From Candidatus Velthaea sp. (lineage in GTDB: Bacteria > Vulcanimicrobiota > Vulcanimicrobiia > Vulcanimicrobiales > Vulcanimicrobiaceae): a stretch of 16,058 nt of DNA. A model generated the notes under the pieces. The model ran no database searches. It was not told the DNA's origin and saw nothing but the letters and a program-made list of their open reading frames with translations. Position numbers and translations under genes: made by a program. Location of the stretch: assembly GCA_050012475.1 (NCBI GenBank), contig JBEKHC010000109.1, forward strand, positions 1-16,058, given 5' to 3'. Below are positions 1 through 15,842 of this stretch, piece by piece. Positions within the stretch are counted from its first letter, which is position 1. The number at the start of each line of letters is the position of its first letter.

Positions 1-1268
1 TGGGGCGACGTCGTTCCGATCGTTTCCTGTACCAGACGTCCCGCCGGCGAGTTCGGATCGGTGGCGATGATGCGCGTCGTTCCGACCGGCTGCGGTGCGT
101 CGCCAATCCGCGTGATGACAAAGCCCTTGCTCGCGAATTGCTGGGCGTAGCGGCCGGCGAGGCCGGGAACGCTCGTCCCGTTGAGGATGACCAAGTGGAC
201 GGCTGCGGGCGGCACTTTTTGAAGCGCGAGTTCCTGTGGCGAAAGGAGCAGCGATGCGAGCTCGGCCTTCTTTTCTTCGTCGGGGACGATCGAATCACCG
301 TAGTCGGGTAAGGCGATGGCTGCCACATAGGGGACCTGCGCGGTCTGGATATCCGCCGCTTTGATGTTGCGGAACGCAAGCACGAGCGCGAGTTCTTCGC
401 GCGGCGTGAGATTCGTTTCGACGTCCTTGCGGACGACGTCGAGCAGTGCCTTGGCATGGACGATCGTGTTCAGCCGGTCGTGCTGAATCTTGTCCACGAT
501 GGCGCGAACGACTTGCTGTTGACGCAAGATGCGGCACGGATCGCTGCACCAGTCGTGACGAAACCGCGCGTAACCGACAGCTTGCTCGCCGTCGAGATGC
601 TGCAGGCCGGGTTTGAGATGGACGTGCAGGTGTCCCCAACTGTCGTCGTAGTCCAGCGGGCCGTTGCTGCCGGTTTGACGCAGAGCATCGGAATTCTTGA
701 CCTCGACATCGATGCCGCCTAGGGCGTTGATGAGATCGCTTGTCGCATCGATACGGAGCACGACGTGACGATCGAACGGCGGGATGCCGAGCCAGTCTGC
801 GACCACCGCCTCCGACTCTTTGATCCCGCCGTCAGACTGGGCCTGATTGATCTTCGCTTTCTTGCCGTCCGGGAGCGTCGCAACCATGTCGCGCGGAACC
901 GACAGCTCGACGACCCGGCGGCTTCGCAAGTCCAGACCGATGGCCATGATGATATCCGAACGCGACGATTTCGACGTTTGCTGATCTTTCGCGTCGTAGT
1001 CGTAATCCAGCCCGACGACCAGTATGCGCAGATGACTCGACCCGAAGACCCGTTCCGGATCGGGAAGGAGCATTTGTTCCATCATCGCAACCGGGTGCGC
1101 GAGCGCGCTGGGTTGACCGATCGCCGCTGCGGGCGCCGACAGTGCCGGCTGAGGCGCGGGCTGCGACTTCGTCGCGTTCTCGGAACGGGAAGTGATGAAG
1201 AAACCGGCGATCGTCGCGCCGGCGATGATGGTTAGCCAAATGAGAATGCGGTTGCGGAACGGTCGCAT
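1..1268 (-). CDS. LCP (LytR-CpsA-Psr) family protein with N-terminal TM anchor and LytR_C-like C-terminal domain; 3' end lies beyond the left edge
   Basis: Not in the ORF track because it has no stop in the window. Manual translation from ATG 1268 (alternative TTG 1271; SD GAGGGAG at 1280-1286): MRPFRNRILIWLTIIAGATIAGFFITS...RILVVGLD...SRSDIIMAIGLD...LSVPRDM...KINQA...LINALGGIDVEV...LKPGLQHLDGEQAVGYARFRHDWCSDPCRILRQQQV...VILNGTSVPGLAGRYAQQFASKGF. These are typical LCP and LytR_C motifs. Confidence 0.93.
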   Translation of the reverse strand, partial: MRPFRNRILIWLTIIAGATIAGFFITSRSENATKSQPAPQPALSAPAAAIGQPSALAHPVAMMEQMLLPDPERVFGSSHLRILVVGLDYDYDAKDQQTSKSSRSDIIMAIGLDLRSRRVVELSVPRDMVATLPDGKKAKINQAQSDGGIKESEAVVADWLGIPPFDRHVVLRIDATSDLINALGGIDVEVKNSDALRQTGSNGPLDYDDSWGHLHVHLKPGLQHLDGEQAVGYARFRHDWCSDPCRILRQQQVVRAIVDKIQHDRLNTIVHAKALLDVVRKDVETNLTPREELALVLAFRNIKAADIQTAQVPYVAAIALPDYGDSIVPDEEKKAELASLLLSPQELALQKVPPAAVHLVILNGTSVPGLAGRYAQQFASKGFVITRIGDAPQPVGTTRIIATDPNSPAGRLVQETIGTTSP

Positions 1269-1332
1269 CAATGCAAATACTCCCTCGCGCGACGGTCGGG
1301 ACCGGCGCGCGCTCTGCTGCTGGGTCGGTACG

Positions 1333-1986
1333 TTAAGCAGCGGCGAGTGGAGGAGCGCGCTCGCCCGTACGTCCGCGGGCAGATGATTGGCTTTTTTGTT
1401 TGAACGGATCGGCCCAGCGCGCGATCGTCAAACGGGGACTGCGCGCCGCCGTTGCGATCAACAGCAAGACGAAGCCGAGAAATCCAACCGCGACGCGGGC
1501 AAAGAAATTGAGCACGTGCACGGCAAAGAACGTCACGCAGATGCACGCTGCGGCGTGCAAGCCGAGGCTGATCGGCGCCGGGCCGCCGAGCCAAATCGTC
1601 CCGCCGAGGGCATGGCCGTCGACAATGAGTTGCTCGGCAGTCTCCATGCTGAAGAGGATGGCGATTTGCGTGACAAAGATTGCCGGAAGCAGACGCACGA
1701 GCGTGCGCGGCCGCACTGCGTCGCTGGGAGCGGCGAGCAGCGCCTTCGGCCTTGCGCGGTACCGGTCGGCGAAGACCGGCCGAAGCCGCACGCACAGATA
1801 GTAAACGCCGATCAGCAGTCCGCCGATGAGCGTGGGCAGAACGTCGAGACTGCTGTGATCGGTGAGGTCATTGCGACCGAAGATGCCGGCGTCCGAAAGT
1901 GATTCCATTGCGGGGTTCGCGACGGCGGCGGCGACGGCGGCCGTGGCCAGGCAAAACCAAATCCGGAGCGACGTAGAGAGGGTCAC
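1333..1986 (-). CDS. Hypothetical polytopic membrane protein (about 217 aa, 4-5 TM) with a C-terminal RAPP motif; candidate ribosome-arrest peptide
   Basis: 3' part of ORF 1333..2211. Likely start is GTG at 1986, 10 nt after the upstream stop. Hydrophobic segments: LRIWFCLATAAVAAAVA, VLPTLIGGLLIGVYYLCV, LLPAIFVTQIAILFSM, ISLGLHAAACICVTFFAV, VAVGFLGFVLLLIATAA. Ends GERAPPLAAA*. Confidence 0.75.
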   Translation of the reverse strand: MTLSTSLRIWFCLATAAVAAAVANPAMESLSDAGIFGRNDLTDHSSLDVLPTLIGGLLIGVYYLCVRLRPVFADRYRARPKALLAAPSDAVRPRTLVRLLPAIFVTQIAILFSMETAEQLIVDGHALGGTIWLGGPAPISLGLHAAACICVTFFAVHVLNFFARVAVGFLGFVLLLIATAARSPRLTIARWADPFKQKSQSSARGRTGERAPPLAAA

Positions 1987-1996
1987 CGCGGGCCGA

Positions 1997-2371
1997 CTAC
2001 GCTCGAACGGGGCGGACGCTTGTCGGTTCGCGCAGGATGCGCGCGAAACGCAGCAGCCACGGGTGGCGATCGGTGCGGGCCAGGGCCATGATGGAATCGC
2101 CGCGTTGGAAACCGAACATGCTGTGCCGGTTGACGAGCGAGCATTCGACGGTGCCGCTCGGCGCCGTCTCCAGCGGCCCGTGGTCCAGCACCAGCGTCCC
2201 GCGCCGAGCATCGATCGTGAGAACCGTTCCGCTCACCGTCATCCACGCGCTCCCCCGAGCGTCCAGCGCGTTGTGCCGAATCGAGACCGTCGTCGGCCGC
2301 GGGTGAGGCGAGCGGTCCGACGACGGTTTGTCCGGCGCCATCACGAGCGCCACCAGCGTTAGTACGAGCAT
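1997..2371 (-). CDS. Exported CusF-like (copper-binding protein family, OB-fold) protein, degenerate
   Basis: ORF 1997..2380; the ATG at 2371 has GAGG about 9 nt upstream. Short hydrophobic N-terminus. VSGTVLTIDARRGTLVLDHGPL...SMFGFQRGDSIMA resembles the CusF pattern G.V..ID...G.VTL.HGPI...L..GD.V.F, but the WPAMTM motif is absent. Confidence 0.6.
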   Translation of the reverse strand: MLVLTLVALVMAPDKPSSDRSPHPRPTTVSIRHNALDARGSAWMTVSGTVLTIDARRGTLVLDHGPLETAPSGTVECSLVNRHSMFGFQRGDSIMALARTDRHPWLLRFARILREPTSVRPVRA

Positions 2372-2577
2372 GGTACCCATCCTCAGCGGCCCGGGAACCG
2401 ATCTTTCGCGGTACGTTCGCGAAACCGTTTCGGCAGCCGACCGCGAACGACCGCGGAGAAAAGAAGGCCGCCCGCTGAGTTCTCAACCGGGGTAACCGAG
2501 CGCGTGAGAGTCCTCGAGGAAGGCCCGGCGAAAGAAGCGCGGTCGGCGCAAGCTCCGAGGAGGCGCATCCGTCCGGC

Positions 2578-2604
2578 CTGGCACTGTGTTTGGTAGAGTG
2601 CTAA
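2578..2604 (+). promoter_or_regulatory. CIRCE-like operator (HrcA binding site)
   Basis: CTGGCACTG-N9-GAGTGCTAA against consensus TTAGCACTC-N9-GAGTGCTAA. The right arm is perfect, the left arm matches 6/9 and the spacer is exactly 9 nt. It lies directly before the RBS of hsp20-lon. Confidence 0.85.
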
Positions 2605-2615
2605 CCACGAAAGGA

Positions 2616-3053
2616 TTGCCGCGCTTGCGTCAAGACGAATTCGCCGCCGAGTTCGATCGGCTCTTTGCCGACCTGGCTCGGCACGCTCATCACTGCCGCT
2701 TCGAACCCAATGCGGACGTCTACGTCGATCGCGAAGGCGATCGGATCGTCGTCGTGGTTGAGTTGGCCGGGGCTGATGCCGACAGTTTGCGGGTCGGCAT
2801 CGACGAGCGGCACTTGTTCATTCTCGGCGCGCGCGTCGACCGCTGCAGCTCGGCCGGATCGATCCATCAAAAGGAGATCCAATACGGGCAGTTCGTCAAA
2901 AAACTGCACCTGCCGGCGCCGGTCGATGACGATCACGGCTCGGCCGTCTATCGGGACGGCATTCTCACGATCAGCCTGCCCCTCGCGCCCCACGCTTCGT
3001 TTCCGACACGCCGGACTGAAATCCGGATGGTCGTCAAAAGGACCCTCGCCTAA
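2616..3053 (+). CDS. Hsp20/alpha-crystallin family small heat shock protein
   Basis: FEPNADVYVD...IVVVVELAG...LFILGAR...EIQYGQFVKKLHLPAPVD...AVYRDGILTISLP is the alpha-crystallin signature. Start is probably TTG 2616 or TTG 2625 after AAGGA; the track's 2586 start falls inside the CIRCE element. The stop overlaps the lon start (TAATG). Confidence 0.92.
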   Translation: MPRLRQDEFAAEFDRLFADLARHAHHCRFEPNADVYVDREGDRIVVVVELAGADADSLRVGIDERHLFILGARVDRCSSAGSIHQKEIQYGQFVKKLHLPAPVDDDHGSAVYRDGILTISLPLAPHASFPTRRTEIRMVVKRTLA

Positions 3054-5521
3054 TGGCTACGCGTAACCCAAAGAGTCCCGATATTCTGGGGATCTTGCCG
3101 CTGCAGGAAGCGGTGTTGTTTCCGAACACCGTGATCCCGCTCGCGGTCGTCAAGAAGCCCGGCATCGCGCTGGTCGAAGAGGCTTTGCGTGAGGGCAAAC
3201 CGATCGGTCTGGTCGTTTTGCGCGACAAGGACATCGAAGATCCCGGTCCGGGCGACGTGCGCCGGGTCGGCACGATCGGCACCGTGCAGAAGATGCTCAA
3301 GGTTCCCGACGGGACGCTGCGCTGCATCGTCGCCGGCGGCCCGGTGTTCCGCATCGACGAGTTCGTCGGCACCGAGCCGTACCTCGCCGCGACGTATACC
3401 GAACTGCCCGACATCACCCGCGAAACGGACGACCTCGTGGCCATGCAGCGCAATCTGGCGACGCTGTTTTCCAAGCTGCTGGGCTATTTGCCGCAAGCGC
3501 CGCGCGAAATGGAGATGGAAGTCAACAACATCTCCGATCCCAACTTGCTGACGTATTTCGTCGCCTCCACGATGCGGCTGGATACCAACGATCGTCAAGA
3601 GATTCTCGAGGAACGCAACACCGAGAAACGCTTGCGCCGCTTGACGATGCTCATCACCAAAGAGCTCGAAGTCGTCGAGCTCGGGCACAAGATTCAAAGC
3701 GACATCCAGCGCGAGATGGAAAAGAACCAGCGCGAATTCTATCTTCGCCAGCAGCTGCGCGCGATTCAAGAAGAACTCGGCGAGACCGATCCGCAGCAAG
3801 CCGAGGCCAACGAACTGCGCAAAAAAGTCGACGAAGCCAAGATGCCCGAGGACGTCAAGAAAGCCGCCGACCGCGAATTGGACCGGCTTTCCAAAGTGCC
3901 GACCGCGTCGCCGGAGTATTCGGTCATCCGCACGTATCTCGATTGGCTCACGCAGTTGCCGTGGTCCAAATCGACGTCGGATCAAATCGACATCCCGCAG
4001 GCCCGCCGCGTGCTCGACGAAGACCACTACGACCTCGAGAAGATCAAGGACCGCATCGTCGAGTACTTGGCGGTCGGCAAGCTCAAGAACAAGCTGACCG
4101 GACCGATCCTGTGCTTCGTGGGACCGCCGGGCGTCGGCAAGACGTCGCTCGGGCAATCGATCGCCAAGGCCATGGGCCGCAAATTCATTCGGCTGTCGGT
4201 CGGCGGCGTGCGCGACGAGGCCGAAATTCGCGGCCATCGCCGCACCTACATCGGTGCGATGCCGGGCTCGATCATTCGCGCCCTGCGTGACGCGGGCACG
4301 AACAACCCGGTGATGATGATCGACGAGATCGACAAGGTCGGTGGCGATTTCCGCGGCGATCCGCAATCAGCGCTGCTCGAGGTGCTCGATCCCGAGCAGA
4401 ACAACTCGTTCCGCGATCATTACCTCGATCTGCCGTTCGATCTGAGCCAAGTGCTCTTCGTGTGCACGGCCAACCAGCTCGACACGATCAGTTCGGCGTT
4501 GCGCGACCGCATGGAGATCATCCAGCTCTCGGGCTACACCGAGTTCGAGAAGATGCAGATCGCCAAGCGCTATCTGATTCCTAAGCAGCGCAAGGCCAAC
4601 GGACTGCGCGACACCCAGGTGCAGCTCAACGACGCGGCGCTCAAGAACATCGTGGTCGATTACACGCGCGAGGCGGGCGTCCGCAATCTCGAGCGCGAGA
4701 TCGGGACCGTGTTCCGCAAAGTCGCGCGCAAGATCGCCGAAGAACCGCGGTTCAAGGCCCGGATCAAACCCGAGAGCCTCGTCGAATACCTTTCCAAGCC
4801 GCGGTTCTACAACGAAGTCAAGAAGCGCGTGGCGTCGATCGGCGTTGCGACGGGATTGGCCTGGACGCCCGTCGGCGGTGACATCTTGTTCATCGAAACG
4901 ACGTCGATGCCGGGAACCGGCAAGGTCACGCTCACCGGACAACTCGGCGACGTGATGAAAGAATCCGCAACGGCCGCGGTGAGTTTCCTGCGCTCGCGCC
5001 AGATCGAACTCGGCCTACCGGACGATTACTTCGCCAAACACGACCTGCACATCCACGTGCCGGCTGGCGCGGTTCCCAAGGACGGACCGTCGGCAGGCAT
5101 CTCGATGGCGACCTCCATTACGTCAATGCTTACGGGGCTCAAAGTCGACAGCGACTTGGCGATGACCGGCGAGATAACGCTGACTGGTCAGGTCCTGCCG
5201 ATCGGCGGCGTCAAAGAGAAGGTACTGGGTGCGAAGCGGGCCGGGATCAAGAAAATCTTGCTCCCCAAACGCAACGAGATCGATCTCGAGGACGTGCCAA
5301 AGGAAGTCCGCGACACGATGGAGTTCGTGCTCGTCGAGGAACTCAGCGAAGTGTTCCTCCATGCGCTGGGCAAACGCGTCATCACGCCGGTGCTGCTGGG
5401 GAACGAAGTCCAGCCGCGGCGCGGAAGCAACGTGGTCGCGCTGCGCCAACCCGCGGTCAAGCGCGTGCGCGTCGAGCGCAAACGCGCGCCGCGCAGCGGC
5501 GTCGCCACGCGTAAGCGTTAA
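3053..5521 (+). CDS. lon: ATP-dependent Lon protease (endopeptidase La)
   Basis: 822 aa. LON N-domain (VLFP), Walker A GPPGVGKTS, RGHRRTYIGAMPG, Walker B MMIDEIDK, catalytic PKDGPSAG Ser and IGGVKEK Lys. Confidence 0.99.
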   Translation: MATRNPKSPDILGILPLQEAVLFPNTVIPLAVVKKPGIALVEEALREGKPIGLVVLRDKDIEDPGPGDVRRVGTIGTVQKMLKVPDGTLRCIVAGGPVFRIDEFVGTEPYLAATYTELPDITRETDDLVAMQRNLATLFSKLLGYLPQAPREMEMEVNNISDPNLLTYFVASTMRLDTNDRQEILEERNTEKRLRRLTMLITKELEVVELGHKIQSDIQREMEKNQREFYLRQQLRAIQEELGETDPQQAEANELRKKVDEAKMPEDVKKAADRELDRLSKVPTASPEYSVIRTYLDWLTQLPWSKSTSDQIDIPQARRVLDEDHYDLEKIKDRIVEYLAVGKLKNKLTGPILCFVGPPGVGKTSLGQSIAKAMGRKFIRLSVGGVRDEAEIRGHRRTYIGAMPGSIIRALRDAGTNNPVMMIDEIDKVGGDFRGDPQSALLEVLDPEQNNSFRDHYLDLPFDLSQVLFVCTANQLDTISSALRDRMEIIQLSGYTEFEKMQIAKRYLIPKQRKANGLRDTQVQLNDAALKNIVVDYTREAGVRNLEREIGTVFRKVARKIAEEPRFKARIKPESLVEYLSKPRFYNEVKKRVASIGVATGLAWTPVGGDILFIETTSMPGTGKVTLTGQLGDVMKESATAAVSFLRSRQIELGLPDDYFAKHDLHIHVPAGAVPKDGPSAGISMATSITSMLTGLKVDSDLAMTGEITLTGQVLPIGGVKEKVLGAKRAGIKKILLPKRNEIDLEDVPKEVRDTMEFVLVEELSEVFLHALGKRVITPVLLGNEVQPRRGSNVVALRQPAVKRVRVERKRAPRSGVATRKR

Positions 5522-5531
5522 GAGCCGCCTC

Positions 5532-5559
5532 GCCGGCCCCGGCTCGCGCCGGGGTCGGC
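5532..5559. terminator. GC-rich hairpin between the convergent lon and small ORF; possible terminator or stabiliser
   Basis: GCCGGCCCCGGC-TCGC-GCCGGGGTCGGC forms a 12-bp stem with one G:U, 10 nt after the lon stop. There is no U-tract. Confidence 0.45.
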
Positions 5560-5614
5560 AGGACAGCACGGCCGGCAGACCGTCAGGTCCAGGAACGGTT
5601 GCTACGTGCCGGTG

Positions 5615-5830
5615 CTACGGTCGCCAGGGCCCGGCCCCCGTTCCCGACCACGCTTCGATGTGCCGTTGGAGCTGTTTGGTGATATCGAGGTAGTACTGCA
5701 AGAGCGCTTCGATTGCGCCGCGCTGCTCCGGCGTGAGCTTCGCGTCGCTGGCGAGTTCCTGGCGCAGTCGTTCGATGATTTCATAAATTTGGCTGAGATC
5801 GTAGTTGCACGGCGGTTGGTCTTGGGACAT
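5615..5830 (-). CDS. Small hypothetical helical protein (71 aa)
   Basis: ATG 14 nt after the regulator's stop, with a purine-rich GAGAGGG upstream. Natural-looking amphipathic helices (LSQIYEIIERLRQEL; EQRGAIEALLQYYLDITKQLQRHI), unlike the Arg/Ala-rich shadow ORFs around it. Confidence 0.7.
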   Translation of the reverse strand: MSQDQPPCNYDLSQIYEIIERLRQELASDAKLTPEQRGAIEALLQYYLDITKQLQRHIEAWSGTGAGPWRP

Positions 5831-5844
5831 AGGGGTGCCCTCTC

Positions 5845-8800
5845 TCAGATTTGCCAGTGAGCTCGATCGAACGCCTCATCGATCGCGGCGTTATAGCGCA
5901 AGCGCCGAAACGTGACGCGCGACTCGGCGTCGGCAATCGTTGCTTCGAGTGTATCGAGTATAGTGCGTGCGCGTCCCAAAAGCGTCCGGGCGCCGTCCTC
6001 ATCGTCCGTAGCCCGGCGGACCGCGGCGACCGTCCAGAGCAGATATTGCCGATGCGGGAAACGCAGCGTCGCGTTTTCGGCGAGCGCCAGGACCTCGGCG
6101 GACAATTCCACCGCGCGCTCGATGCGATTGTTCCGCAGCAGGGCGATGATGAGCTCGCACAGATCCTCGCCCAATGCAATCGTTTCATTCAACTCGCGTT
6201 CGAGCGTCGTACCCCGTTCGAGGTGCGCAATCGCCGCATCGACATTGTCGAGTTCGCGTTCGGCCACGCCCAAGTTGACCAGTGCGTGGGCCCGCACGGT
6301 CGGTGCTTCGAGCGCGTCGACGAGCTCCAGAGCTTGTTTCGCGGACGCTCGGGCGAGCGCAAAGTCGCCCTTGAGGTACGCAGCGTAGCTGATGTTGTTG
6401 ACGCAGGCCACGTGCCCGAAACCATACGAGATCGCTACGGCGAGCGCATCGGCGGCAGCGAAGAGCTCGAGCGCCTCGTCGAATTTACCGAGGTAGGTTT
6501 TCATGTTCGCGATATCGGCGAGCACGAGCAGCTGTTTGAAGCGTTGCCCCATCGACGCGAACATCTCCAAGGCACGCGCGAAGAAATCGCCGGCGCGCTC
6601 GATCTCGAAGAGCTGCCAGGCCGCTCGGGCCGCATACCGGTAGGCCGTCGCTTCGGCCTCGCGGTAGCCGATGGCGCGCGAACAGCGCAAAAGCTGCTCG
6701 GCGCAGGCAGCCAGGGCGACATTGTCTTGAATCGTGTTTGCTGCGCCGCACGCGGTTTCGAGCAGCCGGACCACGCGCGCGGCATCGTATTGACGCTCGA
6801 AGCTTGGAACTTCGTCCAGGAACGCGCGCACATCGGCGACCCGGCCCTCGAAGCAGGCCAAATCGGCGAGCGCGCAGCGGCAATCGACGTAGATGCCCGG
6901 ATAGTCGTGCGGGGAGACGTTCTCGAGGATGTCGGAGAGCACGGCGCGTGCTTCGCGGTATGCATCGACCGACGTGAGGTACGATCCTCGCAACTGCGCG
7001 AACGTCGCTGCCCAGCGCGCGCTCGCACCCGGCAAGGCGGCAGCGAGCGCGTCGATCGCGTCCCGTTCCTGGTCGCGTTCGGCGCAATCGTGCGCGAGCC
7101 GGATTTGGCGCAGCAGCGTTTCGCGCAGGAGTTCGGCATCGCCAATGCTGCCGGCGAGCGAAAGAAGCTGCGCGATGCTGCTGCGCTGCGATTCGCGGTT
7201 GCCTAACCGGCGCGCCGCTTCCTCGATGATTTCGACCGTGCGAAAGCGCGTCAGATCGTTGCCGGCGAGTTCGTAACCGCGCGCCGCCAACGTTCGTGCC
7301 TCTTCGCTGCCGTAGAGCGTGAGTGCATGACGGGCGGCTAGGCGATAATAGTCCGCCGCGTGCTCGGGTTCGCCGCCGCGATCGAAGTGCGATGCGATCT
7401 CTGCTGCGAAGGCCTCGAGCTGTTCGCCGTAGAGTTCCTCCATGACGGTTCCCACCCGCCGGTGGCGATGCTGCCGCGTTTCCGGGCTCAACCCGGCGTA
7501 CACATTCTGCACGATGAGCTGATGCGAAAACGCAAAGTTCGAACCGTTCGCGCCGACTTCGCGGACGAGCCGCCGATCGACGAGTTCGCCCAACGCATCG
7601 AGGGTCGAGCGTTCGTCAGCGCCGCTCACTTCGCGCACGAGTTCGGCAGAGAACGCGCGGCCGACGACTCCAGCAATTTCGGCGATCGTCCGGGCCCGAA
7701 CGGAAAGCCGCTCGAGGCGCGCATTCAACGTCGAGGTCAGCGAGGCAAGCGGGTCGGGCGGGACGTCGCGTTGCTGCCAGTGGCGCAGAGCGACGTCCAA
7801 GAAGCCTGATTCACGTTCGTTGGCGACGACCTCGCCGAGGAAGAACGGATTCCCCTCACTGCGCTCGTGCAGATAACTCGCAATCGCCGTGCGATGCAGC
7901 GGCGCATCGTCGACGAAGTTACTGACGATTTGCTCGATCGCCGGCAGTTCGAGCGGTCCGAGGGCGATGGCGCGCAGCAGGCGCTCGCGCTCGAGCCGCC
8001 GCCGCAGCGCTCGCAGCAAGTGCGTGCGCGGCAATTCTTCTTCGCGATACGAGGCCACGATGAGCAGCCGGTGCTTCGCTGCGTGGCGCGCCAGATGCTC
8101 GAACAACGCGATCGTTGCCGAACCGGCCCAATGCAGGTCCTCGAGCACGAGCAGCGTCGGACGCGCCGCGGATAGCGCGTCGATGGCGACTTCGACCGCC
8201 TCGAATAAACGGGTTCGTTCCGGCTCGGCGTCCAGCGCCGTCAGGCGCCGCAGGTTGGGGAACGCCACCTGCAATTGCGGCACCAGCGAGGCGAGAACCG
8301 ACAGCCAGAGCGGCTCGATCGCGGTCTCGCGCAGGATCGGCAGCGCGCCGCGCAACGCTTCGGAGAACGCCTGATACGGCGCCAGCTCGAACGGTGTCGT
8401 TCCGCCGCGCAGCACGCGTCCGCCGTTCGAGTCCGCGAACGTTGCGAATTCTTCGATGAGCCGGCTCTTGCCGATGCCGGCTTCGCCGACCACGAGCAGC
8501 GAACTCCCGGTCCCGCCCGACGCCTCGTTCCAAGCCGCGCGCAGCACCTCCATCTCGCGTTCACGGCTGACGAACGGCAAGCCGGACGTCTCGCGTTCGC
8601 TGCCCGGCGCCGAGCCGCCCGCGACGGTCGTGTCGGCCAACGCCAACACCCGTTCGTAGGCACAGACCGTTTCGGGCATCGGTTCGACGCCCATCTCGGC
8701 ATCGAGGCTGGTGCGGAAACGCTCGTATTCGGTGAGTGCTCCGGCCCGGTCGCCCGCCGCATACCGCAGCGCGATCAGCGTTCGAACCGCGTCTTCGCGC

Positions 8801-9399
8801 CAGGGGTCGAGCGCCCGCAGCCGTTGAGCGAAGCGAATCGCGGCGGGATAGTCGCGGCGTTGCTGATGCCGCGCGACGAGGTTCAGGAGATTGTTCATCG
8901 CGATCGTGCGCAGGCGATCGCGATCGCGCACGATCCAGTCGTCGTCCAGATCGACGAGCAGATCGCCGCCGTAGAGCGCGTCGGCCGCAGTCGCTTCATC
9001 GGACGCGCTCAAGCGCTCGAACTCCGCGACGTCGAGCCGGTACGGTGCGGCGCTGTTCCAGCCGATGCTGGCGGCCGTCGTCACGATCCACGGCTCGTGC
9101 CGTTCAGGCAGCGCGCGCTGCACCAAGTGCAGCTTCCGGCGCAGGTTCGCCCGCGCGTCGGCTTCGTCGTCGTCGGGAAACAGCGTGAAGGCAACGTGTT
9201 CGCGCGACTGCGTGCGGTCGCGATTCAGCAACAGAAAAGCCAAGAGCCGAACGGCGTGCTGCGGCAGACGCAGCGGCAGCAGTCGACCGCCCTGGCGCGC
9301 GGCAATCGTGCCGAACAGCGTCAGTTCGAGTGGTTCCTCGGGCGCAGGCGCGCCCGCCGGTCGCCGGGCGGAGAGCGGCGCAACGACTGAGTTTCGCAT
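5845..9399 (-). CDS. AfsR/SARP-like large transcriptional regulator: wHTH + BTAD + STAND (AAA_16-type) ATPase + TPR
   Basis: 1184 aa. N-terminal LELTLFG...LLAFLLL...SREHVAFTLFP...NLRRKL; BTAD LDVAEFE...DPWREDA...GDRAGAL...MGVEPMPET; PFVSRERE; Walker A GEAGIGKS; Walker B LLVLEDLHWA; SEGNPFF; FSHQLI; C-terminal TPR-like helices. Confidence 0.93.
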   Translation of the reverse strand: MRNSVVAPLSARRPAGAPAPEEPLELTLFGTIAARQGGRLLPLRLPQHAVRLLAFLLLNRDRTQSREHVAFTLFPDDDEADARANLRRKLHLVQRALPERHEPWIVTTAASIGWNSAAPYRLDVAEFERLSASDEATAADALYGGDLLVDLDDDWIVRDRDRLRTIAMNNLLNLVARHQQRRDYPAAIRFAQRLRALDPWREDAVRTLIALRYAAGDRAGALTEYERFRTSLDAEMGVEPMPETVCAYERVLALADTTVAGGSAPGSERETSGLPFVSREREMEVLRAAWNEASGGTGSSLLVVGEAGIGKSRLIEEFATFADSNGGRVLRGGTTPFELAPYQAFSEALRGALPILRETAIEPLWLSVLASLVPQLQVAFPNLRRLTALDAEPERTRLFEAVEVAIDALSAARPTLLVLEDLHWAGSATIALFEHLARHAAKHRLLIVASYREEELPRTHLLRALRRRLERERLLRAIALGPLELPAIEQIVSNFVDDAPLHRTAIASYLHERSEGNPFFLGEVVANERESGFLDVALRHWQQRDVPPDPLASLTSTLNARLERLSVRARTIAEIAGVVGRAFSAELVREVSGADERSTLDALGELVDRRLVREVGANGSNFAFSHQLIVQNVYAGLSPETRQHRHRRVGTVMEELYGEQLEAFAAEIASHFDRGGEPEHAADYYRLAARHALTLYGSEEARTLAARGYELAGNDLTRFRTVEIIEEAARRLGNRESQRSSIAQLLSLAGSIGDAELLRETLLRQIRLAHDCAERDQERDAIDALAAALPGASARWAATFAQLRGSYLTSVDAYREARAVLSDILENVSPHDYPGIYVDCRCALADLACFEGRVADVRAFLDEVPSFERQYDAARVVRLLETACGAANTIQDNVALAACAEQLLRCSRAIGYREAEATAYRYAARAAWQLFEIERAGDFFARALEMFASMGQRFKQLLVLADIANMKTYLGKFDEALELFAAADALAVAISYGFGHVACVNNISYAAYLKGDFALARASAKQALELVDALEAPTVRAHALVNLGVAERELDNVDAAIAHLERGTTLERELNETIALGEDLCELIIALLRNNRIERAVELSAEVLALAENATLRFPHRQYLLWTVAAVRRATDDEDGARTLLGRARTILDTLEATIADAESRVTFRRLRYNAAIDEAFDRAHWQI

Positions 9400-9440
9400 G
9401 GTCTAGCGCACATCCACCATTGATACCGCGTGTGCCATGC

Positions 9441-9470
9441 AGGATACGGGCGGACCTTCGGACTTGTCAA
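9441..9470 (-). promoter_or_regulatory. Putative sigma70-type promoter for the SARP/STAND regulator
   Basis: Minus strand TTGACA (9470-9465)-N18-TATCCT (9446-9441), about 40 nt upstream of ATG 9399. Confidence 0.55.
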
Positions 9471-9533
9471 GGCCGGGGGACTCGCGGTCCGGGCCATGTA
9501 ACTCCGCTTCAACCTTTTCTGGAGACCCGCTTC

Positions 9534-10700
9534 GTGTCGAAAAACCTGCTCTTCATCCCTGGACCCGTTACCGTCGCTCAATCGGTTCTCGATGCGACCG
9601 GCCGACAGATGATCGATCATCGCGGTCCGCGCTTTCACGAACTGCTCGACACCCTCGCGGCGCGCCTCAAACCGATTTTCGGAACGGCCGTCGCGGACGT
9701 CCTAATTTTGGGCGGTTCGGGCACGGGCGGTTTGGAAGCAGCGGTCGGCAACATGTTCGGAGCGGGCGATACGCTGTTGGCGTGTCCGGTCGGAGTGTTC
9801 GGCCAGCGCCTGATCGCGATCGCGAAAGCGTTCGGCTGCACGGTCGAAGTGCTCGATACGCCGTGGGGCAGCGGGGTCGACCCGCACGCACTGCGCGCGC
9901 GCCTGGAGGCCGACACCGAGAAACGAATCACCGGCATCCTCCTCACGCACAACGAGACCTCGACCGGGGTTCAAAACGTAATGGGTCCCTTGGCCGAGAT
10001 CACGCGCAAACACGGCGCGTATGTCGTCGTCGATTCGGTCAGCGGCCTGGGAGGCAGCGAATTCACGATGGATGCGTGGGGTTTCGACGTCGTGGTGACG
10101 GCTTCGCAAAAGGTGCTGGCGGCGCCGCCGGGATTAACGATGGTTGCCGTCGCTCCCCGAGCGTGGGCGAAGATCGAATCCAACCCGTCGCCCCGCTTTT
10201 ATTTCGATCTCGGCAAAGCGCGCGATTTTGCCAAGCTGGGGCAAACGCCGTGGACGCCGCCGGTCTCGATCGCCTATGCGCTCGATGCGGCGCTCGATCT
10301 CTTCGAAGCCGATGGGCCGCCCGTGGTGTGGGCTCGGCACGCCCGGTACGCCCGTGCGGTGCGCGCGGCATGCGAGGCGCTGCAGCTGGAGATCTTCTCG
10401 CAGGAAGGCGCGCACTCGGTGACCGTGGTTGCGGCGAAGGTGCCGGCGGGTTTGGACGGCGACGCCATTCGCAAGGTTCTGCGTGAGGAACGCGGCATCA
10501 CGCTGGGCGGCGGTCAAAAGGAGCTCAAAGGCAAGATCATCCGCATCGGCACGATGGGCGACTTGTCGCAAACCGACATCCTCGGCATGCTCGGCGCACT
10601 CGAGATTGCGCTGCTCAACGCGGGACAGCCCGTCCAAATCGGCACCGGAGCGAAAGCTGCCCTCGAAGTCTTCCTAATGGACGCCGCCGTCCCAGCCTAA
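9534..10700 (+). CDS. Class V PLP-dependent aminotransferase (alanine-glyoxylate/serine-pyruvate family)
   Basis: GTG 9534 preceded by GGAG at 9521-9524. Motifs LLFIPGPV, MIDHRG, GSGTGGLEAA, HNETSTGV, VVDSVS, PLP lysine in TASQK, QTPWTPPV, IRIGTMG. The track's start at 9330 overlaps the divergent gene. Confidence 0.95.
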   Translation: MSKNLLFIPGPVTVAQSVLDATGRQMIDHRGPRFHELLDTLAARLKPIFGTAVADVLILGGSGTGGLEAAVGNMFGAGDTLLACPVGVFGQRLIAIAKAFGCTVEVLDTPWGSGVDPHALRARLEADTEKRITGILLTHNETSTGVQNVMGPLAEITRKHGAYVVVDSVSGLGGSEFTMDAWGFDVVVTASQKVLAAPPGLTMVAVAPRAWAKIESNPSPRFYFDLGKARDFAKLGQTPWTPPVSIAYALDAALDLFEADGPPVVWARHARYARAVRAACEALQLEIFSQEGAHSVTVVAAKVPAGLDGDAIRKVLREERGITLGGGQKELKGKIIRIGTMGDLSQTDILGMLGALEIALLNAGQPVQIGTGAKAALEVFLMDAAVPA

Positions 10701-10807
10701 CCTGGGATGCACTGGTTTCGCCCTGGACGTCGTCGCTACGCGGCTCATTTGCTCGCGCAAACTTCGCCGCTATGCTCCTCGCCAGGACAAAACCAGAGCA
10801 TCCCAGG
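10701..10807. repeat. 107-bp imperfect palindromic element
   Basis: Nested arm pairs CCTGGGATGC/GCATCCCAGG, CTGGTTT/AAACCAG, CCTGG/CCAGG, GCGGC/GCCGC and TTTGC/GCAAA. Confidence 0.7.
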
Positions 10808-10883
10808 CTTGAACCACAGCCCAAACCGTGCGCGCCTGCCGCCCCCAACACCGCAGGCTCGCCCAAGTCGGTGGGCGTGCGGC

Positions 10884-10971
10884 TTCGGCCCCAAAGGGGC
10901 CGAAACGCCACGGGTTCGGCCCAACGGGCCGAACCCTGAGTGGCACCCATCGGCCGTTCAGGCCGATGGGT
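10884..10971. repeat. Three tandem REP-like hairpins sharing a TCGGCC...GGCCGA core
   Basis: TTCGGCCCC-AAA-GGGGCCGAA (10884-10904), GGGTTCGGCCC-AAC-GGGCCGAACCC (10912-10936), ACCCATCGGCC-GTTCA-GGCCGATGGGT (10945-10971). Confidence 0.75.
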
Positions 10972-11462
10972 CAACGCATGTGACCAGCGCGAGCGGCGGC
11001 GCTGTGAGCGCAAGCGTTTTCGACGTAGTCCGCGATCGAACGCAAGAGGTCGCGCGCCGAGGCGCGTGCGATCCGGCGCCCGAGCGCGGCGTCGATCCAC
11101 TCGCTGACCGCACCGAAACGCAGCTCGTAATGGCCGCTTACCAGGAGCCCGAAACAATCGTCGAAGGGGCTTTTTTCGACGGCAAGCGCGCCCGCGAACT
11201 CGGGAAACGGGGCGCCCGCGCGCGGTGACCAGGTCACCGAGTACGTGGGATGCGGATCGCTGACCGAACGCAGCGGGTAGAGGGTCGCAACGATGCGGCG
11301 CTCGATGATCGATCGCCGTTCCGCGAACAGGTTCAGCGGGAGTCGAAGCGAGACGCTTACCGTGCCGTCTCCGACTTGATGGTCGGCGATGAACGAGCTC
11401 AGGTGACGGGATGCTTCCCGATCGGGGCAGTGAACGACAAGCCGCTCGCTGATGTCCGTCAT
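10971..11462 (-). CDS. Conserved-looking hypothetical protein (163 aa), possibly SRPBCC/START-like fold
   Basis: ATG 11462 with SD GGGAG at 11469-11473. Several beta-strand-like segments followed by a long C-terminal helix (FPEFAGALAVE...LLVSGHYE...DAALGRRIARASARDLLRSIADYVE). The fold assignment is inference. Confidence 0.7.
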   Translation of the reverse strand: MTDISERLVVHCPDREASRHLSSFIADHQVGDGTVSVSLRLPLNLFAERRSIIERRIVATLYPLRSVSDPHPTYSVTWSPRAGAPFPEFAGALAVEKSPFDDCFGLLVSGHYELRFGAVSEWIDAALGRRIARASARDLLRSIADYVENACAHSAAARAGHMR

Positions 11463-11546
11463 CTCGATCTCCCTTCGGACCCTCATTTTAGCGCGAAATC
11501 CGGCGCGCGCAATCATGCCGGCGTGCCTTTGCCGGCGAGCTTTGGC

Positions 11547-12083
11547 TCAAACCCGATGGTTGACGAAGATGGGGTCCGCAAACGGTTTGACCGCTGACGG
11601 AAGCGCGCCCCGCATCACGGCGTCGACGCGTGCATTGGGCTGGGTGACGATCGACGCGAGGGTGGAGTGGCGCAGATCGCTGCGCACGTCGTGGGTGAGC
11701 GGAAAGAAGAGTGCGACGTAGAGGACGGCCCAAGCGCCGACGAGCGCCTTGGCCAGCCCAACCGCCGCACCCGCGGCGCTGTTCCCCAGCGAGATCACGG
11801 GAAGCCGCGCGAACCGTCCGAAGATCCACGCCAGCGCCATCACCGCGGCGTAGACCGCCAGCGCGAACACCACCATGCCGACAATATGCGCCGCGCCCGC
11901 ACTCGCGTGCACGTAACGCTGCGCTAGATCGTCGAGCGACCCCGGATAGCGTAAGGCAGCGACGATCGCCGCGCCGACGGCTACGGCGCCCGAGAGCTCC
12001 GCGACAAAACCGCGCTTCCAACCTTTGAGCGCGAAGATCAGCGCCAGACCGGCGATGACGAGGTCGGGCCAAGTCGGCGTCAT
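11547..12083 (-). CDS. cvpA: CvpA (colicin V production) family membrane protein
   Basis: The ATG overlaps the pheT stop (ATGA). WPDLVIAGLALIFALKGWKRGFVAEL...NSAAGAAVGLAKAL...S.LA matches the CvpA pattern; about 4 TM; position after pheT is typical. Confidence 0.88.
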   Translation of the reverse strand: MTPTWPDLVIAGLALIFALKGWKRGFVAELSGAVAVGAAIVAALRYPGSLDDLAQRYVHASAGAAHIVGMVVFALAVYAAVMALAWIFGRFARLPVISLGNSAAGAAVGLAKALVGAWAVLYVALFFPLTHDVRSDLRHSTLASIVTQPNARVDAVMRGALPSAVKPFADPIFVNHRV

Positions 12084-14470
12084 CCGCGCAGCGTCGCCCC
12101 GTGCGCGGCACCCAATTCGCTCAGCGCGAGTTGCAAGATGGCGTCCGCCTCGCCGTCGGTCAGCGTGGTGTCGTCGCGTTGCAGAACGACGCGGACGGCC
12201 AAGCTCTTCTTGCTCGCGCCGATCTGCGGACCGCGATACTCGTCGAAGACTTCCACGCTGCGCGCGAGCGGCGTCGAGGCGCGAATCGTCGCCTGGATGT
12301 CGGCAGCGCTGACACGCGGATCGACGACGATGGCGAGGTCGCGTTCGATCGCCGGATATCTCGAGAGCGGCCGGTACGGGTGCACGCGGTGCGGCGGCAG
12401 GTCGTCGATGAAGACCACGGCGCACACCGCATCGTCGCCGATGTCGACGGCGCGCAGCAAACGCGGATCGACGCTTCCGACGTAACCGACCGCCGTGCCG
12501 GCGGCGAGGATCCGCGCGGTTTTTCCCGGGTGCAGACCGGACATCGTTCCGCGTTCAAGCCGGGCGTCGCTGCCGGTGATGGTGCGCACGAGCGCGCGCA
12601 CGTCCGCTGACGCGGCCAAGAATGCCGCGTCGCGCCAAGCCGGCTGCCCGGCGACGGGTCTCGTGGTCGCAAGCGTGGTCAGGACGTTGATTTCGCGCGG
12701 AGCGGCCGGTTCGTCGGCAAAAACGTGACCGATCTCGAACGTTCGCAGCGGGCGCAGCGCGCGTTCGCGCGCGGCGTGTTCGAGCAATGCCGGCAAAATC
12801 GAAAAGCGCATCCAGCGTTGATCTTCCGATAAGGGATTGCGAATCTCGACGCAGGCGGGAACGTCGAGGCCGAACGAGCGCCAGCGCTCGGCGACGCTTT
12901 GCGGCTGCAGCGCCAACGTCAGACATTCGGCATAACCCAGACCGGCGAGGGTGCGCGCGATCGCCATCTCGCGGTCGTAGGCGGCGCTGTCGAGCGGTTG
13001 AGCCGCGATCGGCGGCAGCTCCGCTCGCACGTGATCGTAGCCGATGATGCGCGCGATCTCTTCGACCAGATCGGGCGCGATCGTCACGTCGGAGCGCCAG
13101 CCCGGCACCCCGACGCTGAATCGAGCTCCATCGTCCGAAGGGACCGGCGCGACGGTGAAGCCCAACGCTTCGAGCGCACGGCGCAGTTCGTCGGCCGTGA
13201 CGTCGAAGCCGAGCAAGCGCCCGACGTCGCGTTGGGCGAGTTGGATGATGGCCGGCGGCTCGAGCGGTTTTCCGTAAGCGCGTGGCGGCGCGGCCGTTCC
13301 GCCCTCGCGTTCGAGCAGAAACGCCGCGCGCGCCGCGCCGAGGTCGGCCAAGGCCGGCGGCAGATTTTTTTCATTGCGCGTCGAGGCTTCGCTGCGCAGT
13401 CCGAGTTTGACGCTCATGCGCCGGACGCGGGGGCCCGAAAAGTTCGCGCTCTCGATGACGATCTCGCGCGTGCTGTCCGAGACTTCACTGATCAGACCGC
13501 CCATGAGTCCGGCGAGCCCCGTTGCTTGCTCGTCGTCGGCGATGACCAGCGCGGTCGGATCGAGTTCGCGATCGGTTCCGTCCAGCGTCGTCAGCCGCTC
13601 GCGCGGCCGAGCGTCGCGCACGATGATGTGTTTCCCGGCAATTTTTTCGAAGTCGAAAAAGTGCAGCGGCTGACCGAGCTCGAGCATCACGAAATTCGAG
13701 ATGTCGACGAGATTGGAAATCGGCCGCTGTCCGGCGAGCGCCAAGCGAATCCGGATCGCCGCCGTGCCGCGCCGAACTTCGAGATGGGAAACGCGCTGAG
13801 CGATGTACCGTCGCGCGTCCAGACTTTCGAGCGTTACGCGCACGTCGCCGGCCGTCGATGGCGCGCCGTTGGTGCGCTCGGCCGACGCGCCCTCCGGGGG
13901 CGGGAAACGCAACGGCGTGCCAAAGGCGGCCGACAATTCGCGCGCGATTCCGACCATCGAGAACGCGTCGCCGCGATTGGCCCCGATCTCGATGTCGAGC
14001 ACGGGAAGATGCAGCCCGAAGAAGGCGACGACGTCGGTCCCGTTGGGCGTTGACGCATCGAGCTGCAGGATGCCGTCTTCGAACCACTCCGGGACGAGCC
14101 CGAGCTCGTCGGCCGAACACAACATTCCCTGCGAATCGATGCCGCGCATCTTGCGCGGTTCGATCTTCAATTGCGGAAGCTGCGCGCCGATGGTTGCGAC
14201 CGGCACGACCTGATGGAGCGCGACGTTCGTCGCGGCGGTCGCGATGGTCAAGGGTGCCGCGGCACCGACATCCAGCCGGCATACCTGCAGCCGGTCGGCG
14301 TTGGGATGTTTCGCGAGTTCGACGATCGAGCCGGCGAGCACCCCGCTGATGACGGGCCGTTGTTCGACGGTCTCGACCGGAAAGCCGAGCGTCGCCAAGC
14401 GCGCGACGATTGCATCGACGTCGGCCGGCAGGTCGACGTAGTCGCGCAGCCAGCCCAGTGGAACGCGCAT
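12080..14470 (-). CDS. pheT: Phenylalanine--tRNA ligase beta subunit
   Basis: Starts MRVPLGWLRDYV at 14470, overlapping the pheS stop (TAATG). KHPNADRL, MRGIDSQGMLCS, NRGDAFS, GQPLHFFD, WRSDV...DLVEEIARIIGYD, NPLSED, SRYPAIERDLAIVV, ends LRG. 796 aa. Confidence 0.98.
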   Translation of the reverse strand: MRVPLGWLRDYVDLPADVDAIVARLATLGFPVETVEQRPVISGVLAGSIVELAKHPNADRLQVCRLDVGAAAPLTIATAATNVALHQVVPVATIGAQLPQLKIEPRKMRGIDSQGMLCSADELGLVPEWFEDGILQLDASTPNGTDVVAFFGLHLPVLDIEIGANRGDAFSMVGIARELSAAFGTPLRFPPPEGASAERTNGAPSTAGDVRVTLESLDARRYIAQRVSHLEVRRGTAAIRIRLALAGQRPISNLVDISNFVMLELGQPLHFFDFEKIAGKHIIVRDARPRERLTTLDGTDRELDPTALVIADDEQATGLAGLMGGLISEVSDSTREIVIESANFSGPRVRRMSVKLGLRSEASTRNEKNLPPALADLGAARAAFLLEREGGTAAPPRAYGKPLEPPAIIQLAQRDVGRLLGFDVTADELRRALEALGFTVAPVPSDDGARFSVGVPGWRSDVTIAPDLVEEIARIIGYDHVRAELPPIAAQPLDSAAYDREMAIARTLAGLGYAECLTLALQPQSVAERWRSFGLDVPACVEIRNPLSEDQRWMRFSILPALLEHAARERALRPLRTFEIGHVFADEPAAPREINVLTTLATTRPVAGQPAWRDAAFLAASADVRALVRTITGSDARLERGTMSGLHPGKTARILAAGTAVGYVGSVDPRLLRAVDIGDDAVCAVVFIDDLPPHRVHPYRPLSRYPAIERDLAIVVDPRVSAADIQATIRASTPLARSVEVFDEYRGPQIGASKKSLAVRVVLQRDDTTLTDGEADAILQLALSELGAAHGATLRG

Positions 14471-15498
14471 TAGGCGAGCTGCTCCAAGAACGCCGGTTTG
14501 TTTTCGATGAATTCGCGAATATCGTTCACATCGTATTTCTTCATCGCGATTCGTTCCAGACCGCAGCCGAACGCCCAGCCGGTAACGGCATCCGGATCGT
14601 AGCCGACACTGCGCAGGACATTGGGATGCACCATCCCCGAACCGCCGATCTCGATCCAGCCCGAACCGCTGCACGTGCGGCAGCCGCTCCCGCCGCAGCC
14701 GGGGCACGAAACGTCGACTTCGGCGCTGGGCTCGGTGAACGGAAAGAACGACGGCCGGAAGCGGATCTCTTGCGCGGGTCCGAACAGCTCGCGCATCACC
14801 CCGGTGAGCACCCCTTTGAGATGGCCGAAGTGAATGCCGTGCCCGACCATCAAGCCCTCGACTTGATGGAATTGATACAAATGGCGCGCGTCGACGGCGT
14901 CGCGCCGATAGGCTTTGCCCGGCACGATGATGGCGATCGGCGGTCCGCTCGTGCGCATCGCGCGCACCTGCATCGGCGAGGTGTGCGTGCGCAGCAGTAA
15001 ATCGGGGCGCAGATAAAATGAATCGAAGCCTTCGCGCGCCGGATGGTCCGGCGGGATGTTGAGGGCGTCGAAATTGTTCGCGTCGGTCTCGATCTCGGGG
15101 CCGAGCACGATCGCGAAGCCGTGGCGCGAAAAATAACGCGCGACGTCGTCCATGACCGCGCGAACGGGATGCAGGCTGCCGATGCGCGCGCGCGGAGCGG
15201 GAAACGTTACGTCGATCGTGTCGCTCAGCGACGCCTCGACCGCCGCGCGTTCCAAGGCCGCTTGTGCGGCCACCAGCTGCGCCTCCATCTCGCCGGCCGC
15301 GACGTTGATGACCTTTCCGGCGTTGGGCCGTTCGGCGGGCGGTATCGTACCGATGCCGCGGCGCAGCACGGTGAGTTCGCCGGTCCGACCAAGATAGGTC
15401 ACGCGGACGTGATCGAGCGCGCGCTCGTCGCTTGCCGCGGCCACGTCGCGCGCGAAGCGCTCCTTTAACGTACGTAAGCCGGAATCGAGATCGGTCAT
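14470..15498 (-). CDS. pheS: Phenylalanine--tRNA ligase alpha subunit
   Basis: Starts MTDLDSG at 15498. GSLHP, NFDALNIPPDHPAR, LLRTHTSPMQ, FHQVEGL, RFRPSFFPFTEPSAEVD, CPGCGGSGCRTC insert, GSGMVHP, GWAFGCGLERIAM. Confidence 0.98.
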   Translation of the reverse strand: MTDLDSGLRTLKERFARDVAAASDERALDHVRVTYLGRTGELTVLRRGIGTIPPAERPNAGKVINVAAGEMEAQLVAAQAALERAAVEASLSDTIDVTFPAPRARIGSLHPVRAVMDDVARYFSRHGFAIVLGPEIETDANNFDALNIPPDHPAREGFDSFYLRPDLLLRTHTSPMQVRAMRTSGPPIAIIVPGKAYRRDAVDARHLYQFHQVEGLMVGHGIHFGHLKGVLTGVMRELFGPAQEIRFRPSFFPFTEPSAEVDVSCPGCGGSGCRTCSGSGWIEIGGSGMVHPNVLRSVGYDPDAVTGWAFGCGLERIAMKKYDVNDIREFIENKPAFLEQLA

Positions 15499-15547
15499 GG
15501 TCGGTATGAGGTGCTCCGAACGCCAGTCGGAGCACACCGTGCTCCGC

Positions 15548-15582
15548 AAAGAGGAACGCCCGGTTACTACCGGGCGTTCCTC
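15548..15582 (-). terminator. Perfect 14-bp inverted repeat between the yqzL-like gene and pheS; terminator/attenuator-like
   Basis: GAGGAACGCCCGGT-4nt-ACCGGGCGTTCCTC, followed on the minus strand by only TTT (short U-tract). Confidence 0.6.
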
Positions 15583-15624
15583 GCAATTCACTTTGTTACC
15601 GGGCAACTCCCCGGCGGGCCAGTG

Positions 15625-15726: not shown

Positions 15727-15810
15727 CTGTCGGCGATACCCCTTTTGTCCAACGTTTCGAGCGTAAAATATTCGGCCGCGAGCGAGGTGGGTTTTGACGT
15801 TGTTGCAGCG

Positions 15811-15839: not shown

Positions 15840-15842
15840 GAC

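Follow-up and report, generated by a model that had tools for sequence, protein, structure and literature searches.

A candidate RAPP arrest leader ahead of an LCP ligase gene in Candidatus Velthaea

Introduction

What does a small membrane protein ending in Arg-Ala-Pro-Pro (RAPP) do immediately ahead of a gene for a cell-wall polymer ligase? The question arises from a stretch of 16,058 nucleotides (nt) of Candidatus Velthaea sp. (Vulcanimicrobiota; contig JBEKHC010000109.1, positions 1 to 16,058; hereafter the window), on whose minus strand an open reading frame (ORF) running from 1986 to 1333, with a GTG start, 217 amino acids (aa) and the C-terminus GERAPPLAAA*, precedes a LytR-CpsA-Psr (LCP) ligase gene. 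An earlier note on this DNA had suggested that the ORF encodes a ribosome-arrest sensor which tunes translation of the ligase. Our best explanation as a whole, to which we assign a probability of roughly 0.7, is a RAPP arrest leader that sets LCP translation and responds to a cation. That the leader acts as an arrest switch seems very probable from comparison with its relatives; that a divalent cation is the signal, granted such a switch, falls slightly short of an even chance. The comparative data indicate that the motif, its spacing from the membrane and the pairing between predicted stall codons and the downstream Shine-Dalgarno (SD) are under selection.

Results

Leader ORF and conservation of its ending

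The features on which the question turns are these:
1333..1986, minus strand: leader ORF, 217 aa, a predicted N-in bundle of four transmembrane (TM) segments followed by amphipathic helix, linker and RAPP (model mean pLDDT 83 and homologue columns)
1348..1359, minus strand: codons of the RAPP arrest motif, where a stall is predicted once the first Pro codon (1353-1351) occupies the P site, a register taken by analogy with ApdA/ApdP
1..1268, minus strand: LCP ligase with N-terminal anchor and LytR_C, incomplete at the contig end (PF03816 E 8e-30, LytR_C E 6e-10)

Translation of the ORF confirms the membrane protein ending ERAPPLAAA* that the earlier note had read, with its RAPP codons at 1348-1359, and the downstream gene is an LCP gene as claimed, its ATG (1268) lying 64 nt from the leader stop and an in-frame TTG 3 nt before that ATG. 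Four residues remain after the motif. Searches with the leader gave neither a Pfam family at E 0.1 nor an NCBIfam family at E 1. For this genome, RAPP within the last 16 aa has a chance of about 0.0005 per gene, and its ORFs (2757, crudely called) are depleted in RAPP (21 observed vs 51 expected; AAPP 99 vs 74). The RAPP region is found again in contigs from two further DNA runs (X4, identical over 1310-1839; X2, one letter different over 1289-1589). RNA contigs, all from one study, reach just short portions of the leader and are evidence for neither transcription nor its level. Between 1150 and 2700 a sigma-70-like promoter was looked for and none was found, and two terminator-like matches are at chance level.

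The leader is a member of an unnamed Vulcanimicrobiota family of membrane proteins, with matches in 23 of 41 relatives (unpublished genome G011 included) and profile matches in 148 of 301 genomes of the phylum (G285 and G247, both unpublished, included), all within three families; nothing else in the analysis depends on these three genomes. Searching 1.84 billion representatives with a profile yielded 578 matches at E 0.001 (best 150 of 578 listed). A profile of the core only hits all 159 proteins of our set, and 152 of these carry RxPP in the last 30 aa: 121 RAPP and 25 RGPP (146 together), 4 RSPP and 2 RPPP. The other seven comprise two with RGPP further inside and five that are truncated, shifted or fused; among neighbouring ORFs the background is 4/352. 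The retrieval queries contained the tail, yet E-values of 1e-19 or below are beyond what four residues can give. The terminal RAPP is thus conserved among homologues, a check proposed in the earlier note.

For locus-level work we sampled 130 loci (30 from the relatives, 100 from the phylum) plus the window, which gave 133 ORF matches; left out of this sample were many near-redundant loci of one genus, unpublished ones and 112 further matches. Intact leaders, defined by RxPP within 12 aa of the stop, number 117, the 16 set aside being frameshifts, contig ends, fusions, one CAPP and two RAPP-ending ORFs mis-anchored by script. Over 129 pairs the GERAPP codons show pN 0.02 at pS 0.47, and the linker, where amino-acid change is highest ahead of the motif, pN 0.36.

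The family may extend beyond the phylum into Actinomycetota, as a search of 401 genomes there, with a stricter first screen, suggests: it gave eight weak matches, three of them full-length leaders ending RGPP, with core-only E of about 1e-5 in a 790-ORF set. These three (L219, L220, L222) are distant look-alikes with His at the site; one lies ahead of a PepSY-TM gene, and in two, pairing is predicted between the following SD and the codons that come behind RGPP. A tblastn search of plasmids with a His-type member found nothing.

Predicted stall codons and the downstream Shine-Dalgarno

Three RNA elements link the end of the leader to the start of the ligase gene:
1279..1284, minus strand: Shine-Dalgarno GGGAG(U) of the LCP gene (sequence)
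1340..1356, minus strand: predicted anti-Shine-Dalgarno (anti-SD) in the A-P-P-L-A-A codons, pairing 1356-1351 with 1279-1284 or 1352-1340 with 1280-1290, varying with the upstream RNA folded
1286..1347, minus strand: two predicted nested hairpins, 1347-1312 (around the stop codon) and 1311-1286, which bring the anti-SD beside the SD

To place these in the family we took 80 leaders less than 60% identical and retained 64 whose downstream gene, SD and gap were credible. Starting at the Arg codon, 27 nt pair with the SD region of their own locus at -15.8 kcal/mol and with those of other loci at -12.0 (z = -12; 0/20000 permutations), an excess seen with LCP (26 loci, z = -7.7) as well as TonB targets (z = -3.6). 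It is greatest +6 to +12 nt from the Arg codon, the expected place of a ribosome stalled at RAP/P, and is near zero elsewhere. Native codons pair better than the median synonymous recoding in 58/64 loci, and ordinary gene pairs of this genome (150 of 772) give z = -0.57 as a control. A modelled stall raises the mean probability that the SD is unpaired from 0.13 to 0.33 (up in 40/64, down in 5/64). Since the RAPP codons and those next to follow pair with the SD of the same locus, stalling should open it. For the window itself the local fold is a junction closed by 1356-1351/1279-1284 around the two hairpins (P = 0.92), and SD pairing with the RAPP codons has P = 0.92-0.95 if folding begins at the Arg codon.

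Membrane core, linker and outer-face site

Column statistics of the homologues divide the protein as follows:
1897..1965, minus strand: TM1 (residues 8-30), its outer end bearing E28 and residue 24 (N24 here, Asp in most members and His in distant ones)
1843..1896, minus strand: outer loop 1 (residues 31-48) with D43, H44 and D48; D43 and D48 each 56/56 in LCP-linked leaders
1789..1842, minus strand: TM2 (residues 49-66), then an Arg-rich cytoplasmic loop of variable length
1621..1692, minus strand: TM3 (residues 99-122) with Q107, M114, E115 (115/117), E118 (114/117) and Q119
1519..1578, minus strand: TM4 (residues 137-156) with H144 (105/117; 56/56 in LCP-linked leaders)
1366..1518, minus strand: amphipathic helix (157-180) and linker (181-207), conserved in length and variable in sequence

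A fifth TM at residues 157-180 was rejected for the family because this helix is Arg-studded and amphipathic in homologues, K/R occupying positions 157, 160, 164, 168 and 171 in 57, 68, 32, 45 and 45% of the 117. This leaves four TMs and puts the motif Arg about 54 residues after TM4. Hence, of the four to five TMs counted in the earlier note, four stand and the fifth is peculiar to this orthologue, as is its distance of about 28 residues from the last hydrophobic segment to RAPP. The TM-to-RAPP spacing, which the note proposed to examine, is conserved: H144 and the motif Arg are 64-67 aa apart in 56/56 LCP-linked leaders and 64-71 in 117/117, next to 40-72 aa for the cytoplasmic loop. A linker of fixed length and free sequence is, we infer, what a force-coupled arrest peptide should show.

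Under the positive-inside rule an Arg-rich loop marks the cytoplasmic side. This argues for N-in topology and would place N/D24, E28, D43, D48, M114, E115, E118, Q119, H125 and H144 on the outer face; E28, E115, E118 and Q119 are, like D43, D48 and H144, present in 56/56 LCP-linked leaders. No conserved Cys pair is seen in the 117 leaders, residue C148 being Cys in just 53/117. In the structure model (pLDDT 83) the helices form a bundle, and the tail has low confidence. An identity from fold search was rejected, the best match (Z 9.2, root-mean-square deviation 4.6, to BceB/FtsX-type four-helix domains) lying in the range common for helical bundles, and an Atlas structure search stayed below TM 0.45. 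Mutual information couples loop 1 with loop 3 and Q107 with H144; as spurious pairs turn up among invariant columns too, this is a weak hint.

Five genomes, all of one genus, encode a fusion in which the four-TM core, devoid of linker or RAPP, follows in-frame on the C-terminus of a sulfotransferase-like domain (Pfam E 0.04; L227:2992-4644, L228:1456-3054, L229:3168-4817, L230:1414-3381, L231:1524-3110; P0064); the core is there under purifying selection (pN 0.06-0.11, pS 0.27-0.47).

Target genes and the leader-LCP association

LCP genes recur downstream, yet the family is not LCP-specific: the 117 intact leaders precede 56 LCP genes, 35 TonB-type receptor genes and 26 others, among them DUF1007-NicO, a CopC/CopD operon, cytochrome c with multicopper oxidase, an RND pump, redoxin, a bestrophin-like gene followed by LCP, and broken LCPs. 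Residues of the site vary by clade along with the target class, being His-rich before Cu/Ni genes and Asp-rich before LCP; distant members with His there precede CopC/CopD, DUF1007-NicO, the cytochrome c/multicopper oxidase pair, the RND pump or TonB receptors. No Sec/YidC gene (secA, secDF, yidC) was seen downstream in 44 neighbours scanned or in the N-termini listed. This genome has four RxPP leaders, three of them before TonB-type genes; those other than the window leader (on contigs C148, C35 at L164:3376-4050, and C28) end in RAPP, RGPP and RPPP, the one on C28 being just a putative family member.

LCPs occur in 40/41 genomes and are mostly leader-less among those fetched (the tally includes the unpublished G036, G024 and G022), so that the leader-controlled copy looks accessory. 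Four LCP paralogues are found in this genome, with a leader at the window copy alone. The window LCP keeps D88, R103, D105, R126, D127, K139, R235, R237, R246, R249 and Q250, as do 24-25/25 leader-less LCPs, these residues having been equated with published catalytic ones by motif, not by structure.

The LCP-linked leaders form one clade (SH-aLRT 98), 33 of whose 40 rows precede LCP. Their partner LCPs fall into three deep clades with leader-less LCPs between, and the starred branches force at least three changes. Both trees are quick IQ-TREE runs with SH-aLRT only and a midpoint root, which do not give the order of events and cannot separate repeated LCP capture from leader exchange or leader loss in housekeeping LCPs. 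A leader-less paralogue in the same genome shares 53% identity with the window LCP, and the other two clades share 22-30% on average. Between leaders, identity is level at 0.42-0.48 for partner LCPs that are 60% and for those that are 22-30% identical, and drops to 0.31 against TonB-linked leaders. It would appear that the leader stayed with an LCP partner through changes of the LCP itself, or that leaders were swapped among LCP loci only. One leader clade before three deep LCP clades suggests a functional tie rather than inherited synteny. The two leader-controlled LCP clades of the L031/L037 and L033/L052 types are without equivalents of D88 and R103, and one also alters N141, R249 and Q250; judged from these changes they may have another acceptor or activity.

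Neighbouring genes

Ending 10 nt before the leader is one further gene of the minus strand:
1997..2380, minus strand: small secreted CusF-like protein (Pfam E 2e-4, under cut-off)

We rejected this neighbour as a sign of copper sensing, since its match is under the Pfam cut-off and its relatives accompany leader-less LCPs, not leaders; they lie directly downstream of leader-less LCP genes in 6/13 loci (L201, L202, L203, L206, L209, L212). The CusF-like protein may serve as an accessory to LCP and not as a copper chaperone. Elsewhere (L045:11538-12239, minus strand) a different RAPP-ending protein is followed by a CusF-like gene and a TonB-type receptor, and a CopD/YcnI-like cluster diverges from it. 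Read by eye, one of L032/L056 has a leader-LCP locus followed by NicO-like and kdp genes and the other genome a leader fragment just before a KdpD-like gene. Further into the window, an Hsp20 gene and directly after it a Lon protease gene (2586-5521, plus strand) diverge from the leader operon, and 5845-9399 (minus strand) encodes a BTAD-AAA-TPR (STAND-type) transcriptional regulator of 1184 aa.

Discussion

A mechanism consistent with these data may be envisaged as follows. The ribosome would stall at RAP/P when TM1-TM4 are already in the membrane, with about 54 residues between TM4 and the Arg, and its footprint on the P-P-L-A codons would free the LCP Shine-Dalgarno, so that the stall turns LCP synthesis on. 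The outer cluster (N/D24, E28, D43, D48, E115, E118, Q119, H125, H144) may, less certainly, be a ligand site with a divalent cation (Mg2+, Ca2+ or Mn2+, for example) as its likeliest occupant, whose binding could complete or tighten the four-helix bundle and alter the pull on the nascent chain. Arrest, and hence the accessory LCP, would then track cation supply at the envelope. A divalent cation is our leading guess because distant His-type members precede Cu and Ni/Co genes and because LCP enzymes need Mg2+ (PMC7831098). At the level of the family an SD-release switch appears well supported by comparison of loci; for the window copy, modelling makes a weak and context-dependent one plausible.

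Several points weigh against this explanation. With at least 30 extra upstream bases, pairing of the window SD with the RAPP codons has P of just 0.00-0.11 and another fold wins. A modelled stall opens this SD to no more than 0.29-0.40 and leaves the opening energy unchanged (9.6 vs 9.5 kcal/mol), the region folds no better than shuffles (z = -1.05), and at least five pairs form in 61% of 314 chimeric controls too, vs 56/64 native loci. RAPP alone is insufficient for arrest, according to Fujiwara et al. 2025 (PMC12992588). Only conservation and topology point to the putative metal site, a reading by eye found no cation-transport gene that recurs beside the LCP loci, and the purifying selection on the fused, RAPP-less core indicates that the core can work apart from arrest.

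Instead of a cation, the stall switch might read the LCP pathway itself, either its pool of lipid-linked glycopolymer or polyprenyl-(pyro)phosphate (perhaps Mg2+-bridged) or contact with, or modification by, the LCP enzyme, in a SecM-style feedback. That a single leader clade serves three deep LCP clades, at a leader identity of 0.42-0.48 whichever LCP is the partner, fits such feedback. So do the published precedent of A. oris LcpA, which modifies GspA, the product of an adjacent gene, and the fusion of the RAPP-less core to a sulfotransferase-like domain. We nonetheless hold it unlikely, since the site is acidic with no conserved outer-face Arg/Lys for phosphate, TonB-receptor genes are served by a closely similar site, and one binding surface common to three very different LCPs is hard to imagine. 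A bolder reading sees the leader subfamily as a dedicated nascent-chain sensor of cell-wall polymer ligation, coupled more than once to unrelated LCP paralogues and reading an LCP-linked state (a cation-bridged lipid-linked precursor or LCP activity); to our minds this is a tentative idea that we would lean away from. Bacteria of this kind favour acid soils, and the best DNA matches are in peat and soil metagenomes, as would suit a general monitor of insertion or pH in which buried E115, E118 and H144 make TM3-TM4 marginal and Sec/YidC load or outside pH sets the pull in place of any ligand. The charged residues inside predicted TMs and the fixed TM4-to-Arg length agree with it too. Yet none of the annotated downstream genes was seen to be a Sec or YidC gene, and site residues that switch by clade with target class are better accounted for by ligand specificity, which makes such a monitor quite improbable.

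The remaining two alternatives do without a regulated switch. Were the protein an ordinary membrane subunit or anchor, whose RAPP is a constitutive pause coupling its synthesis to the next gene, the persistence of the fused core under purifying selection would follow readily; no fixed partner is evident, however, given that unrelated genes follow (LCP, beta-barrels, CopC operons, redoxin), and a constitutive pause should need no linker of fixed length, so that we rate this as a slim prospect. A switch that has decayed in this particular copy, or a RAPP that is there by chance, could explain the weak predicted SD opening, N24 in place of Asp and the loss here of the Arg residues of helix 157-180. 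Against it, motif, spacing, the other site residues and the SD-complementary stretch are all intact and the motif itself would be a rare accident (about 0.0005 per gene), leaving very little room for this option.

How does a RAPP leader with an LCP target compare with known arrest peptides? SecM, ApdA, ApdP and ApcA (PMC10951233), and likewise MifM, share the RAP/P stall register and a ribosome-binding site exposed by stalling with what we propose for the leader; they monitor and control Sec/YidC, a target not seen among the downstream genes scanned in the leader family. Our earlier note knew of arrest leaders for Sec/YidC or metal genes alone and of none built on a polytopic sensor of about 217 aa. 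Neither limit is upheld in view of Fujiwara et al. 2025 (PMC12992588), who describe small proteins with RAPP/RGPP ahead of genes for TonB, YcnI, PCu(A)C, PepSY, DsbA and thioredoxin, and demonstrate arrest with four 4-TM proteins of Streptomyces lividans (SLIV_18480, SLIV_27375, SLIV_33595, SLIV_33605) upstream of metal-related, thioredoxin and ECF-sigma genes. With fewer than 300 aa, a C-terminal RAPP, TM segments and a close same-strand target class that recurs, the leader shares the sequence and layout traits of that class. Like the S. lividans proteins it is a small four-TM protein with a same-strand target other than Sec/YidC and with conserved polar residues, there proposed to be ligand sensors; unlike them, its site is Asp/Glu-rich with MExxEQ, not three His and Met.

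A possible relationship is hinted at with an actinobacterial family upstream of YcnI, for which HHalign with tails gives a probability of 56% at E 1e-4 (28% in a second comparison) and aligns the Q in TM3, the H in TM4 and the RxPP tail; the core without tail gives 0.4-9%, and the TM1 His aligns just in a forced global alignment. This comparison family comes from an Actinocorallia YcnI locus and its equation with the SLIV_18480 family is inferred from layout. It keeps H26, H75, H83, M97 and H101 where LCP-linked leaders have D/N24 and the Asp/Glu set.

Two copper leaders are instructive. CruR of Bordetella pertussis (PMC9426467) is likewise a RAPP leader, before a TonB-dependent transporter, whose arrest keeps the downstream genes on until ligand binding relieves it; it is a DUF2946 protein with CXXC and works via Rho-dependent termination. 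CutF of Rhodobacter capsulatus (DUF2946; 10.1101/2025.02.05.636593) resembles the proposed leader in that its nascent chain senses an extracytoplasmic ligand and its stalled ribosome melts an SD-hiding stem. CutF differs in that it is secreted and uses CXXXC; its stall, at PPP, can be relieved by EF-P and is brought on by copper. Our leader has four TMs, no conserved Cys pair or CXXC/CXXXC copper motif and no DUF2946 match (Pfam, E 0.1).

LCP is not in the top 30 RAPP downstream groups of PMC12992588, the groups of its Appendix Fig. S2 lying outside this check. Neither LCP, LytR nor the phylum names occur in its main text or readable supplements, the Appendix and three source archives not being covered. 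In the literature searched we found no paper linking LCP/LytR, or Eremiobacter and its phylum, to translation arrest. The LCP target and the partner-swapping pattern were therefore not found in print; in other respects this is an unnamed family within a recently described class.

Fujiwara et al. leave open whether and how RAPP leaders without Sec/YidC targets control these, and where the releasing force comes from. To the first two points the present family offers a comparative answer, in that the stall codons would double as an anti-SD which co-varies with the SD of each locus. Moreover, with a single membrane core whose outer-face residues differ from target to target (Cu, Ni/Co, TonB import, LCP), the family opens ligand specificity and force transmission to test. 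If our reading of the LCP branch is true, arrest control would extend to cell-wall assembly. Should the leader even be a dedicated sensor of LCP state, it would provide the first arrest-peptide feedback on cell-wall assembly, with a His metal site recoded to Asp/Glu on an interchangeable four-helix sensor.

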